Below, piece by piece: positions 32,859 through 39,523 of a DNA stretch of 64,000 bases. A program made the position numbers and the translations under genes. Origin of the DNA: a virus (Duplodnaviria; Caudoviricetes); the IMG/VR virus record IMGVR_UViG_3300013121_000041, positions 46,966-110,965 of that record. The stretch is one strand, 5' to 3'. Below the pieces are notes generated by a model, which made no database searches, had not been told where the DNA came from, and saw only the letters and a list, made by a program, of their open reading frames with translations. Position 1 is the first letter of the stretch; each line of letters starts with the position of its first letter.

Positions 32859-34250
32859 GTGGCCCGCAAGAACGTAAAGGCGAAGGAAGTTTTTGACGCC
32901 ACCACTCACGGTGGGGCATCGACGAAAAGTGTCTCGAACGAAGATCAATTGCGTCGTGCCGTCCTCTCATGCCTCCTGTGGGAGGATCAGTTTTATGAGG
33001 ATGGACAGAAGATCGCTGATCGGATCGTCCAATTGGCGTCGACCTGTTCGCCGGAATTCGTCGTCGATCTGGCGATCGAGGCCCGGTCGAAGTTTCACCT
33101 CAGACACGTCCCCCTCCTGCTTTTGACGGTCGTTGCAAAGACCGGGGCGGGTAAGCCCGGCCTCGTCGCCAACGCCGTTGAGACCGTCATCAGCCGCGCC
33201 GATGAATTAGGCGAGTTGCTCGCCATCTATTGGCGTGACGGTCGCCGTCCCATCTCCGCTCAGTTGAAGAAGGGTCTTGCACGCGCGTTGCGGAAGTTCG
33301 ATGAGTACGCCCTCGCGAAGTATAATCGTGATACGGTCGTCAAGTTGCGCGACGTCCTGTTCTTGACCCACGCGAAGCCGAAGGACGACGAGCAGGCGGC
33401 CCTGTGGCGAAGGCTCGTCGATGGGAAACTCGTGACCCCCGATACGTGGGAAGTCGCACTGTCGAAGGGCGGCGATAAGAAGGATGAGTTTTCCCGTCTC
33501 CTCGCGGAAGGCAAGCTCGGGTATCTCGCATTGCTCCGCAATTTGCGGAACATGGTCGATTCCAAAGTCGAGCGTAAGTTGGTTCGCGATGCCATCCGCG
33601 CGCGTAAGAATGGGGCCGACAGGGTTCTTCCGTTCCGTTACGTTGCCGCAGCGAAGCACGCACCGTCGTTCGCCGATGACATCAGCGATGCGTTCTTGCA
33701 ATCGTTCGAGGGACAGCCGAAACTGCCGGGGAAGACGGTCGTCGTCATCGACGTTTCGGGTTCGATGTATGGTGGGGTCATGTCAAAAAAGAGTGACATG
33801 AACCGAGCCGACGCTGCCTGTGCACTCGGTGCCATCATGCGGGAAGTTTGCGAAGACCCGATCATCTATGCGACCGCCGGTAACGATGCTGTGCGGAAGC
33901 ACAAGACCGTTCCCGTCGCAAATTACCGGGGGCTTCCGCTCGTCAAGTCGATCTATGATATGTGCCATCCTCTCGGCGGTGGTGGAATCTTCCTCAAGCA
34001 GGTGATGGATTTCATCCATGCTGATGTGGGTGAAGACATCGATCGTGTCGTCGTCATTACGGACGAGGCCGATTGTGGAATTGGCGTTGAAGATTCTCCG
34101 TTGCGTGCACGTGCACTCGGAAAGCGGAACTACGTCATCAACGTTGCGTCCTATGAACACTCGATTACGAACGGGGCGTGGACGAAGATCAACGGATTTT
34201 CCGAGAGCGTCGTCCGTTACATCATCGAGAATGAAACGCCGAGAAATTGA
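32859..34250 (+). CDS. Ro60/Rsr (TROVE + vWA) RNA-binding protein
   Basis: LLWEDQFYE, TWEVALS, YLALLRNLRN, VLPFR, DVSGSM, ITDE. Confidence 0.9.
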   Translation: MARKNVKAKEVFDATTHGGASTKSVSNEDQLRRAVLSCLLWEDQFYEDGQKIADRIVQLASTCSPEFVVDLAIEARSKFHLRHVPLLLLTVVAKTGAGKPGLVANAVETVISRADELGELLAIYWRDGRRPISAQLKKGLARALRKFDEYALAKYNRDTVVKLRDVLFLTHAKPKDDEQAALWRRLVDGKLVTPDTWEVALSKGGDKKDEFSRLLAEGKLGYLALLRNLRNMVDSKVERKLVRDAIRARKNGADRVLPFRYVAAAKHAPSFADDISDAFLQSFEGQPKLPGKTVVVIDVSGSMYGGVMSKKSDMNRADAACALGAIMREVCEDPIIYATAGNDAVRKHKTVPVANYRGLPLVKSIYDMCHPLGGGGIFLKQVMDFIHADVGEDIDRVVVITDEADCGIGVEDSPLRARALGKRNYVINVASYEHSITNGAWTKINGFSESVVRYIIENETPRN

Positions 34251-35185: not shown

Positions 35186-35857
35186 ATGAAACGATTGGTT
35201 ACGATCAGACAGGCCGAAGGTGGGAAAGATTCCCGTCTATTTTGCGATGACCTACGCGACGCATATGTTCGCATGTGTCGCCTGAACGGATGGGACGTCG
35301 GTTGACTCACGGACGACATGACACAGGTGTCGTTCGTCGTCAGTGGTGCAGGTGCTGATTCGTTCGATCGGGAGGCCGGTGGTCATCGTATTCAGCGGGT
35401 TCCGCCGACGGAGCGGAACGGCAGGGTCCACACGTCCACCGTCGTCGTATCGTCCATAGATCAGCTATTGCCGGAAAAGATCACCGTCCGAGACGGTGAT
35501 CTTCGCGTTGAATTTTTCTCCGGAACCGGTAAAGGCGGACAGAAGCGCAACAAGTCCCAGACGTGCGCTCGCGTCATCCACATCCCTACAGGCACCATCG
35601 AAACGAGACAGGGACGATCCCGAGAGGCCAACGTCGGGGCCGCGAAGGCGGCGATCGTCCGCCGCTTGAACGACGGTGCGGATGCCATCGCAGCATCGTC
35701 GAGGTTCGCCGAGAAGCGCAGACAGATGGGGTCTGGTGAACGCGGCGACAAGATACGGACGTATCAATTTCAGCGTGGGGTCGTTAAAGATCATCGTACT
35801 GGAAGGCGGGCGCGTATCGATGACGTCCTCGTTGGACACTTCGATCTTTTGTGGTAA
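35186..35857 (+). CDS. RF1-like class I peptide chain release factor lacking domain 1, with in-frame UGA at 35303..35305
   Basis: GAGGA RBS + ATG 35186; EGGKDSRLF..DL..AY upstream of the stop, in frame with EAGGHRIQRVPPTE (PxT), GRVHTST, GGQ, KIRTY. Confidence 0.85.
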
Positions 35858-35910: not shown

Positions 35911-37377
35911 ATGACATATTGTTACACGGCGGCGAACCTACGTGGGTCGAACGTCCTATTTCGGGGATATAAAGACGGGAAACTATTTTTCCGTAAAGAA
36001 AAATGGGAACCAACCGTTTACGTTCCGACGAATCGTGACGCCGGTTGGCACGATCTCAGTGGTCGAAAGCTAGAACCGAAAAAATTCCAAGACGTTCAAT
36101 CGTATCGTAATTGGATCGACCAGAATTCCGGGATCAGTAATTTCGAGTATTTTGGTTTTGAAAATCACAAGACGGCGTTCCTATCCGCTGAATTCCCCGG
36201 AGAGATCACCTACGATCCCGAAGAGATCATCGTCGCTTTCATCGACATCGAAACGGATTCGGCAGACGGGTTTCCGAACGTCGCTCTGGCAGATAAGGAA
36301 ATCACCGCTATTACCGTGAAGGTCGGGGGGTCCTACGTCGTGTTCGGCGTCGGGGATTATACGCCCCATCGACCGGACGTTGAATACAGGAGATCGTCGG
36401 ATGAAAGGACGATGCTCCGCGACTTTCTGAAATTCTGGGAGGAGATCGTCCCTGACGTGGTGTCGGGGTGGAATTCCGAGGGTTTCGACGTCCCCTACAT
36501 TATCCATCGTCTACAACGACTGTTTGGAGAAGATGAGGCGAGACGCCTATCTCCGTGGCGGATTTTGAAGTCCCGCGAGGTCCACGTTTCCGCGACGGAG
36601 ACGACCATCGTGTGGGAAATCTTCGGCATCGAACACATCGACTACCTCCTTCTTTACAAGAAATTTTCCGGCAAGATGCAGGAGTCCTATCGACTGGACT
36701 ACATCGCCCACGTCGAAAAACTCGGTTTCAGGAAGATTGATTATTCAGAGTACGGGAGTCTTCATAGACTCTATCGCGACGATCATCAGAAATTCATCGA
36801 GTATAACGTTCGTGACGTCGAGATCATCGATAAACTGGAAGAAAAAACCAAATTGATCCGGATGGCGATTAACATCGCCTACTCGTCGAAGGTTACGTTC
36901 GGCGACGTGTTCATGACGACGCGCGTGTGGGACGGAATCTGCTACAATTATTTGAACGAGCGGCGGATCGCCGTGCCGACCAAACGCCAGTCTCAGAAGT
37001 CGTCGCAATTCGCCGGAGCCTACGTCAAGGAACCGAAACCCGGTGTCTATGGATGGATGATGACGTTCGACGTGGCGTCGGAATATCCGTCGTTGTTCAT
37101 GCACTACAACACGTCTCCGGAGACGTTCGTTGAAGTTCTCCCGGTCGATACCGACAGATTGTTGAGTGGTGGGGGGCACGATCATCTCCCCCATCTTCTC
37201 GAAAAGAACCTGTCGATGGCCGCCAACGGGGCGTGTTTTCGGCGTGACGTTCGGGGATTCATGCCGACCCTAGTCGATAAATTTTTTGAAGAACGTCAGA
37301 CGTATCGTAAACAGGCATTCGCGGCCAAAAAATTACTCGAAGAAGTTGAAGAGGAAATCCGACGTCGTGGAATTTGA
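35911..37377 (+). CDS. DNA polymerase gp43, N-terminal subunit (exonuclease + palm motif A)
   Basis: DIET, GWNSEGFDVPY, YNVRDV, GAYVKEP, FDVASEYPS; ends in fingers coiled coil. Confidence 0.92.
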   Translation: MTYCYTAANLRGSNVLFRGYKDGKLFFRKEKWEPTVYVPTNRDAGWHDLSGRKLEPKKFQDVQSYRNWIDQNSGISNFEYFGFENHKTAFLSAEFPGEITYDPEEIIVAFIDIETDSADGFPNVALADKEITAITVKVGGSYVVFGVGDYTPHRPDVEYRRSSDERTMLRDFLKFWEEIVPDVVSGWNSEGFDVPYIIHRLQRLFGEDEARRLSPWRILKSREVHVSATETTIVWEIFGIEHIDYLLLYKKFSGKMQESYRLDYIAHVEKLGFRKIDYSEYGSLHRLYRDDHQKFIEYNVRDVEIIDKLEEKTKLIRMAINIAYSSKVTFGDVFMTTRVWDGICYNYLNERRIAVPTKRQSQKSSQFAGAYVKEPKPGVYGWMMTFDVASEYPSLFMHYNTSPETFVEVLPVDTDRLLSGGGHDHLPHLLEKNLSMAANGACFRRDVRGFMPTLVDKFFEERQTYRKQAFAAKKLLEEVEEEIRRRGI

Positions 37378-38440
37378 TTTTGTAAAAGCATTGATAGATA
37401 AATCATCATATGACAAGAAACGAGAAATTGTCAGGTATGTACGTTTCGTATTATCAGCAACTGTCGAATATTCGGGCACGTTCGAGAAACATCATATATT
37501 ACCCGTCGCACTCTTTCCAGAATATAAAAAATCGAGTTGGAATATTGTTTCTATTGATGCTAGAGTTCATTATATTGCGCATTATATGCTCGCTAAAATT
37601 TTTGGGGGTAAAATGTGGTTCGCCTTTAATAATATGCGACGAATTTTCCGACTGGATGTACATCGAAACCCCGGAAAATCATCAAATATGTTGTATTCAT
37701 ATGCAAGAAAATATCTCGCCGAGGAACTTCGAAAAATAAATCTCGGAAGAAAATTTGACGAATCCCAAAAGAGAAAAATGTCCGAGATGAGGAAAGGCAC
37801 TATTGTAGTTCGGGATGAGACGGGTAAAAAATTCAGAACATCGGTATTTGACGAACGGTATTTGTCCGGGGAACTAATACCACATCAAACGGGAAGAAGG
37901 CACGGCGCAGAGACAATACAAAAAATGTCCGTCAATAACGGTGTCACCGGAAAATCTCTATATACGGATGGCTCCAAGTTTATATTCTTGAAATCGACTG
38001 ATAAAATTCCGTCTGGTTTCGTTCGCGGGCATTCAACAGAAATGAAAGAAGCGATGTCGCTGCGGGTAAAAGATACTATCTGGATCACAGACACTTTAAC
38101 CGGGAAAAAATTTCGAACTAAAGACGAAGATATTTTAAGCAATCCGAGATATGTGCGTGGGCGTGGTGAAGACGGTGGGTTTAATTATATTAATAGTTTG
38201 ACTATGGTCATAAACCTGATCACGTTGAAATATGAAAGAGTATCCGTGCTCGAACAATGGCACTATCCATACAGTGGACACCGCATTCATAATATTACAT
38301 GTTTTACCGATAATGGATTTGTTATGTTAGGGCGCAGTGTTTTAAGTAGATACCTGAAGATTAGTGGTAGATCGATGGAACATGTGATAGAGGTTCCATT
38401 ATTGCAGTTCAAATATGGAGATGAGAAACCGTGGAAATAA
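37367..38440 (+). CDS. Free-standing HNH homing endonuclease with NUMOD3-like repeats
   Basis: EKHHILP...N...VHYIAHYML; GRKF.E..KRKMS, GRRH..ET..KMS; AT-rich relative to flanks. Confidence 0.8.
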   Translation: MEFDFVKALIDKSSYDKKREIVRYVRFVLSATVEYSGTFEKHHILPVALFPEYKKSSWNIVSIDARVHYIAHYMLAKIFGGKMWFAFNNMRRIFRLDVHRNPGKSSNMLYSYARKYLAEELRKINLGRKFDESQKRKMSEMRKGTIVVRDETGKKFRTSVFDERYLSGELIPHQTGRRHGAETIQKMSVNNGVTGKSLYTDGSKFIFLKSTDKIPSGFVRGHSTEMKEAMSLRVKDTIWITDTLTGKKFRTKDEDILSNPRYVRGRGEDGGFNYINSLTMVINLITLKYERVSVLEQWHYPYSGHRIHNITCFTDNGFVMLGRSVLSRYLKISGRSMEHVIEVPLLQFKYGDEKPWK

Positions 38441-39523
38441 AAAATATATCTAACGCGGACCTTTTGGATTTGCGTAAAAAGGCGATGATGGAATATACGA
38501 AATATGACATCATGCAAAGAACCAAAAAGGTGTTACTTTAACGGCTTCTATGGGGCGACCGGTACGCCGTCGTTTCGTTTCTTCAATCTCATTCAGGCGG
38601 AGGCGATCACCCTGTCTGGACAGTTCACCGTGATGACGGCTGAACGCACGTTGAATGATTTGATGAACGCCCTGTTGAAAACGAGAGGCGTCGAGTACGT
38701 CGTCTATGCCGATACGGATTCTTGTTTTCTCTCTGTCGAAACCCTCGTCGAGAGAGTGTGTCCCGGATGGGAGAATGGTGACGTCGTCGATTTTCTCGAT
38801 ACGTTCGCGCGGGAGAAAATTCAGCCGACGTTGGAGGCGGCGTTCGAAAAGATGCGCGCCGACATGAACGCATACGATCAGCGGATTTCGATGAAACGGG
38901 AGAAGATCATCGACAAGGCGATCTTCACGGCCAAGAAAAGGTACATCCTCTCCGTCCTCGATGAGGAGGGTATCCGATTTTCAGAACCGGAGATTAAGGT
39001 CACTGGCCTTGAATCCGTGAGATCGACGACGCCGGAAGTGTGTCGAGATTATCTGAAAAGATCGTTCAAGGAAATTCTAACTGGAGACGTGGACCGGGCG
39101 CGGTCGTTCATCGATGCCGTGAGGGCCGAGTGGGCGGACATCCCAGTTGAAGACATTGCCCTGACCACGTCCGTAGATGGTCTCGACGTTTATTTCGACG
39201 GGCAGACGTTGTACCGAGATCGGACACCGATGCACGTCCGCGCTGCGATCCTTTATAATCACAAGATCGCCGAGGATGGACTCCAAAATAAATACGAGGT
39301 CATTAAAAATTCCGACAAGATCAAATACACGTATTTGACGATGCCGAACCCGACGGGAGAGAACGTGATGGCGTTCGTCGGCATTTTGCCACCGGAGTTC
39401 GGGTTGCACGATTACGTGGATAGGAATAAGATGTTCGAGCGGTCATTCTTGTCGCCCCTCGATAAGATTTTTGAATCCATCGGTTGGTCGATCGAAGAAA
39501 GATCGGCATTAGAGTTTTCGTGA
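38431..39523 (+). CDS. DNA polymerase gp43, C-terminal subunit; needs a +1 frameshift at 38536..38542
   Basis: GTG 38431 gives MEIKN...QRTKKVLL*; +1 frame continues NGFYGA, AEAITLSGQ, YADTDS, KKRY, GLESVRSTTP. Confidence 0.85.

Follow-up and report, generated by a model that had tools for sequence, protein, structure and literature searches.

A probable prfB-like +1 frameshift site at the end of a homing-endonuclease cassette in the split DNA polymerase gene of an uncultured T4-like phage

How does a phage make its DNA polymerase when a stop codon cuts the reading frame in the middle of catalytic motif B? This question is raised by a 64-kb stretch of DNA (the window, whose positions are used below unless stated otherwise) from a 110,965-nt IMG/VR viral contig with 53.6% GC and an estimated completeness of ~61%. 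The contig belongs to an uncultured, T4-like phage, and the gene in question encodes its only family-B DNA polymerase, which an endonuclease cassette divides into 43A and 43B. The gene order on the plus strand is 43A (35911-37377), a free-standing HNH homing-endonuclease gene (37367-38440) and 43B. The gp43A product has 488 amino acids and contains the N-terminal part, the exonuclease and the first part of the palm (Pfam DNA_pol_B_exo1, 1.5e-20, and DNA_pol_B, 3.4e-11); in split relatives 43A has 489-501 amino acids.

The 43B gene is itself in two frames. Its head (38431-38538) starts at a GTG that overlaps the endonuclease stop codon and is preceded by GGAG, and its 36 codons are translated as far as ...MQRTKKVLL before TAA at 38539-38541. 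Its body (38540-39523), in the +1 frame from AAC 38540, reads NGFYGATGTPSFRFF...AEAITLSGQ and comprises 327 amino acids with the rest of motif B (NGFYGA), the fingers, the palm (DTDS) and the thumb (Pfam DNA_pol_B, 2.1e-11), with 42-47% identity to gp43 of cyanophages and metagenomic phages. The junction, both frames and the stop codon are as given in a preliminary description of this DNA, which proposed a prfB-style +1 frameshift here. We compared the head and the body separately with other alleles. The head aligns without gaps with the N-terminus of intact split 43B proteins and is likewise collinear with other frameshifted ones; head and body join without a gap to 363 amino acids, and intact split 43B proteins have 363-372.

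A split polymerase gene is not in itself unusual. In metagenomic T4-like phages the order 43A, intervening ORF and 43B is common, and there 43B is one intact ORF. Split gene 43 was also reported in Aeromonas phages 25 and 44RR. There the dividing element is an untranslated insert or the gene of a seg-type endonuclease, and the 43A and 43B chains purify together as an active polymerase (Petrov, Ratnayaka and Karam 2010, as described in PMC2988022). The phage of the window resembles these in having a T4-like PolB in two cistrons, but no frameshift is described for them. Among the open-access papers searched, none was found to describe a frameshift in gp43.

The junction reads AAG GTG (38527-38532), TTA (38533-38535), CTT (38536-38538) and TAA C. 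A single extra T sits within the DNA for motif B (K-x-x-L-N-S/G-x-Y-G), at the right-hand end of the cassette. The slip site CTT-TAA-C (38536-38542) places a Leu codon in the P site ahead of the stop codon, and the Shine-Dalgarno-like hexamer AAGGTG lies 3 nt 5' of the slip codon. A single copy of the composite motif AGGTG-NNN-CTTTRAC is present in the window, and 100 shuffles gave none. The +1 site of Escherichia coli prfB, the gene for release factor 2, is AGGGGG-UAU-CUU-UGA-C. Like prfB, the 43B site has CUU in the P site followed by a stop codon and then C, with the hexamer at exactly the same distance. The stop codon is fixed by its place: with the extra T directly before AAY, the essential Asn codon of motif B, it must be UAA. 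In E. coli, C as the fourth base is a weaker termination context than U. UAA is read by RF1 as well as by RF2, and termination may therefore compete strongly with the shift. We found no structured RNA stimulator at the slip site (z = -0.46), and an Rfam search of the window gave no matches.

In order to see how far this arrangement extends, we searched IMG/VR with the degenerate pattern AAR-RTN-NNN-CTT-T-RA-Y-...-TAY-GGN-GC. It returned 27 loci, 18 of them 43B genes broken in exactly the same way as in the window, and AAG-GTG, TAA and C are found in 18/18 though the pattern permitted alternatives. A second pattern, unconstrained upstream of CTT, recovered 17 NSAYGA-type 43B loci again together with one chance hit; AAGGTG is present at all 17 of these 43B sites. 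A scan of metagenome contigs added 17 more true loci with nine new alleles. Taken together, IMG/VR and the metagenome contigs hold 22 distinct 43B alleles with AAG-GTG-nnn-CTT-T-AAC besides that of the window, from many metagenomes, and the element is invariant in 23/23, with diverged heads, bodies, flanking codons and spacer codons. The proposed prfB-style site is borne out by this junction in 22 other alleles, and the alignment of related 43B genes that the preliminary description had called for gives CTT-TAA-C with AAGGTG in every one of the 23. That description had also allowed for relatives that are all in frame. This is true of the closest whole-protein relatives of 43B (identity of 46% or less) and ceases to be true once the site itself is searched for.

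A single ancestral cassette could lie behind the 23 alleles and account by inheritance for part of the invariance; their diverged flanks argue against common inheritance as the whole explanation. The window's own junction, with or without the T, has no exact match in IMG/VR or the metagenome contigs, phage GenBank records hold no DNA nearly identical to the window, no exact-protein matches for 43A and 43B were found, and scans for close relatives with 43B and with the endonuclease gene returned nothing.

As controls we took the best 160 IMG/VR relatives of 43B, which are almost all unsplit and in frame. In a set of 68 distinct relatives that are in frame, the motif-B Lys is mostly followed by ATT or ATC and never by GTG, so that AAG-GTG occurs in 0/68. 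At 50 distinct in-frame sites that encode the same K-V-x-L-N, Val is written GTT, GTA or GTC (GTG in 0/50), Lys is AAG in 14/50, Leu is CTT in 10/50 and Asn is AAC in 31/50. Across both control sets CTT makes up 20-26% and AAC 62-75%, and AAGGTG is missing from all ~118 sites. The reservation that AAG GTG merely encodes a suitable Lys and Val can thus be set aside. In all frameshifted alleles the hexamer pairs with the anti-Shine-Dalgarno sequence at -5.9 kcal/mol; the corresponding 10-mers of in-frame relatives average -1.96 kcal/mol, and 3/43 of them reach -5.9. The element of E. coli prfB is stronger than that of 43B, at -10.7 kcal/mol, and the best pairing register in 43B, AGGUG with CACCU, is not that of prfB.

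The anatomy of single alleles adds to these counts. Two alleles come from complete genomes of 149 and 164 kb that have terminal repeats, and the PolB matches in both genomes are 43A and the frameshifted 43B only. In five alleles (L090, the L099 group, L102, L105 and L115) a stop codon interrupts the +1 frame 6-18 nt 5' of the Asn codon, and neither ATG nor GTG nor TTG lies in between. There is therefore no start in the +1 frame before motif B in these five alleles, and the conserved NSAYGA can be reached there only via a +1 shift.

Another question is why such a site should stand in the most conserved part of a polymerase. What the preliminary description did not contain is its context: the site is the right-hand end of a homing-endonuclease cassette, as in T4 mobA/gene 60. 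The endonuclease of the window matches PHROG 655 (homing endonuclease, 1.6e-25), PHROG 12434 (HNH, 1.8e-21) and, weakly, NUMOD3. Its frame is open from 37286, and its start, judged from the sequence, is likely GTG 37367, a codon that overlaps the 3' end of 43A. With an HNH homing endonuclease at the same position in another locus, L006, it shares 36% identity (E 7e-43). A low-GC island in the composition profile (37280-38540; GC 0.33-0.46 vs 0.50-0.58 in the flanks) covers the tail of 43A, the endonuclease gene and the 43B head, and ends at the slip site; we presume that it is the mobile cassette. The sequence CGTGGAA occurs at both ends of the endonuclease gene (37360-37377 and 38425-38440). 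For the endonuclease gene as for 43B, the apparent start is a GTG lying across the end of the gene before it, and this arrangement suggests coupled translation or the signature of an insertion.

In the relatives, the genes found between 43A and 43B encode homing endonucleases of Vsr-like, GIY-YIG or HNH type. A Vsr/DUF559-like gene of ~260 amino acids with HTH motifs lies there in seven frameshift loci (L090, L096, L102, L104, L107, L112 and L115), and no gene lies there in the L092 group, L095, the L099 group, L105 and L113. The HNH gene of the window differs from the Vsr-like one that is usual at this site. Between other phages, the head and slip site are 92-100% identical next to polymerase bodies that are ~70-80% identical. 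For example, L099 and L106 share 100% identity from -141 to +29 and 70-88% outside, and L197 and L220 share 85-98% over 800 nt upstream and 60-77% downstream. Segments of head plus site appear from these comparisons to have been exchanged between backgrounds. Mobility of the cassette is seen in this way in the relatives; at the DNA level no other allele is close to the window head, and for the window it is the composition that points to mobility. In two frameshift-bearing phages, L112 (11250-13137) and L110 (387-2250), 43A is split again by a second, HNH-type gene, and the 43A of L113 (748-3282) is unusually long at 844 amino acids, which may reflect an intein or other insertion.

We consider it likely that 43B is expressed by an obligatory +1 frameshift of prfB-like type, the site of which a homing-endonuclease cassette carries, in analogy to T4 mobA/gene 60. 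We infer that the peptidyl-tRNA-Leu on CUU would re-pair with UUU when the slowly decoded UAA-C stands in the A site, and that the AAGGUG three bases upstream would aid the shift, like the internal element of bacterial prfB. A +1 shift at CUU-UAA-C would yield the full-length 43B of 363 amino acids, with the predicted junction peptide VLLNGFYGATGTPSFR, and ribosomes that do not shift would release a peptide of 36 amino acids. The reason for the site is most likely not regulation. The extra base would interrupt the target of the endonuclease in the motif-B DNA; by analogy with MobA and gene 60, it would travel with the cassette, protect the carriers and persist after the endonuclease gene is lost.

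The proposed shift shares with prfB the move to UUU, a collinear product and a short peptide as the non-shifted product. Unlike in prfB, the stop codon of 43B is a UAA forced by the Asn codon in every allele, and not the RF2-specific UGA, which removes the autoregulatory logic; the Shine-Dalgarno-like element is weaker, the gene is that of a phage polymerase subunit and the site rides on a mobile cassette. A closer likeness of context is offered by T4, in which mobA splits gene 39 from gene 60, and the 50-nt bypass of gene 60 was reported to travel with MobA and proposed to protect from self-cleavage (Bonocora et al. 2011, as cited in PMC5009743; Manning and Atkins, bioRxiv 10.1101/2022.08.31.505936). 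In both systems an essential replication gene is split by the gene of a free-standing HNH endonuclease, recoding takes place ~40 codons into the downstream gene (codon 36 in 43B and 46 in gene 60), a stop directly follows the take-off codon, and some elements have lost the endonuclease. In both, the recoding element moves with the cassette, to judge in 43B by the identity of head and site between loci and by the GC island of the window. However, the 43B event would be a slip of one base and not a 50-nt hop; 43B lacks matched GGA codons for take-off and landing, we identified neither a nascent-peptide signal nor a stem-loop, and the host gene and the endonuclease families differ. The case can also be set beside corrective or 'savior' frameshifting, in which translation makes up for an indel in the DNA (Atkins et al. 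2016, PMC5009743). As there, the non-shifted product is useless; unlike there, the 43B site has dedicated and conserved stimulatory signals and spreads horizontally.

Motif B is a target of other mobile elements too in related split 43B genes. In L006 (4720-4933), and likewise in L007, a group I intron (RF00028, 92.4 bits) lies between KIL and LNSLYG; its boundary is the codon boundary of the window's extra T, and it adjoins the homologue of the window's endonuclease gene. Two loci from two samples, L004 (4950-5010) and L005 (1470-1530), have an 11-nt insert, GGT TAG CTCCA GGT, after NS.YGALG, and L008 (1400-1460) has a 10-nt insert, GGA TGA CTAT GGT, at the same place. In all three the stop comes first, directly after GALG, with Gly codons on the flanks, and the conserved GN.YFR.F continues past the insert in another frame and without a start codon. 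Both L004 and L005 adjoin a GIY-YIG gene, which in L004 is located between 43A and 43B. From their sequence these inserts are candidates for short ribosomal hops, like miniature gene 60 gaps.

Can the interrupted frame be explained without a programmed shift? The simplest option is that the extra T is an assembly or sequencing error, as the preliminary description had warned, or a mutation that disables the gene in a defective phage. Only one base is involved, beside a TT run, and the closest whole-protein relatives are in frame. Yet the identical junction with its conserved hexamer recurs in 22 other alleles from independent assemblies, two site-bearing complete genomes have the frameshifted gene as their only polymerase, and the site coincides with the end of a compositional island; an artefact or dead allele is highly improbable. 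It could also be proposed that no frameshift takes place and that the polymerase assembles from three pieces, with the 36-residue head and a body started at ATG 38504. This ATG is in the +1 frame, 36 nt upstream of the Asn codon, and chains of a split polymerase do assemble, as reported for Aeromonas phage 25 (PMC2988022). But no Shine-Dalgarno sequence precedes it, the N-terminus it would give, MTSCKEPKRCYF, lacks the conserved motif-B Lys in register, five alleles have no +1-frame start codon before motif B at all, and conservation of the head in the zero frame extends all the way to the slip codon. We regard this reading as very unlikely. Some other route over the extra base, such as decoding of the quadruplet CUUU by a special tRNA or slippage or editing of the mRNA, would be expected to give the same product. 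Here a Shine-Dalgarno-like element conserved at the prfB spacing would not be expected, and known transcriptional slippage requires a run far longer than three T. We rejected a special tRNA because ARAGORN reports no tRNA gene anywhere in the 111-kb contig. These routes are extremely improbable. In the same contig ARAGORN reports a permuted tmRNA-like gene with the tag ANDNGVLNEVRLAA (G000:C1:22095-22507, minus strand), outside the window.

The remaining alternative concerns the purpose of the site more than its working. The preliminary description had noticed a release-factor gene upstream of gp43 and suggested that release-factor availability gates the output of polymerase. Such a gene was found: an RF1-like gene without domain 1 (35186-35857, plus strand) that ends 53 nt upstream of 43A and has an in-frame TGA at 35303-35305. 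The ORF at 35318-35857 matches Pfam RF-1 (1.5e-20) and PCRF (2.9e-10) and has PxT and GGQ motifs, and the gene scores 166 bits against the prfA equivalog. Reading through GGT-TGA extends the PCRF match from 152-194 to 103-194 of the profile and raises it from 40.7 to 67.5 bits. GGT-TGA also stands at this position in a 56%-identical RF1-like gene of another T4-like contig (L227, 3860-4528); many of the homologues in databases have ~175-185 amino acids, and others have ~225 without the stop. GGT-TGA may thus be a conserved read-through site. A recoding of TGA as the explanation for this gene was rejected, since TGA ends 161/274 long open frames. Further upstream, a 463-residue ORF (32859-34250) has a TROVE (Ro60-like) domain (Pfam 1.5e-11), and no Y RNA was found in the window by Rfam at gathering thresholds.

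That the site serves mainly as a termination-sensing switch, with the phage RF1-like factor as its regulator, can be argued from the neighbourhood of this gene, from its own conserved in-frame UGA and from the fact that the shift must compete with termination at UAA. However, five other site-bearing records, two of them complete genomes, are without an RF-1-domain gene, so that a link to a release factor does not belong to the conserved parts of the system. In addition, the UAA is dictated by the Asn codon and not chosen, no RF2-specific UGA is used, the site tracks homing-endonuclease cassettes, and RF1-like genes with the same UGA also occur in another T4-like contig. The suggestion of gating is not supported, and we find such a switch quite unlikely as the main role of the site. 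A specific form of it is that the factor without domain 1, made via UGA read-through, acts on the 43B UAA and sets the ratio between the 36-residue peptide and the polymerase. This coupling is quite unlikely; if it were true, genome replication would be tied to the state of the host termination machinery.

We therefore return to the frameshift on a homing-endonuclease cassette and to what it means. To our knowledge, natural obligatory prfB-type +1 frameshifts are essentially known from one gene family, and bypassing from T4 gene 60. Here a prfB-like signal arose independently inside a catalytic motif of an essential phage polymerase and was kept in many diverged phages, with homing-endonuclease cassettes spreading it. 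In practice, gene callers truncate such polymerases, and pipelines will score them as broken or misassembled. Taken with the intron and the hop-like short inserts that related phages carry in motif B, the 43B site suggests a general rule, by which selfish nucleases may drive the appearance of recoding sites. Recoding sites in the most conserved parts of essential genes may be the immunity marks of such nucleases, an idea by which the origin of recoding signals is explained in a testable way.
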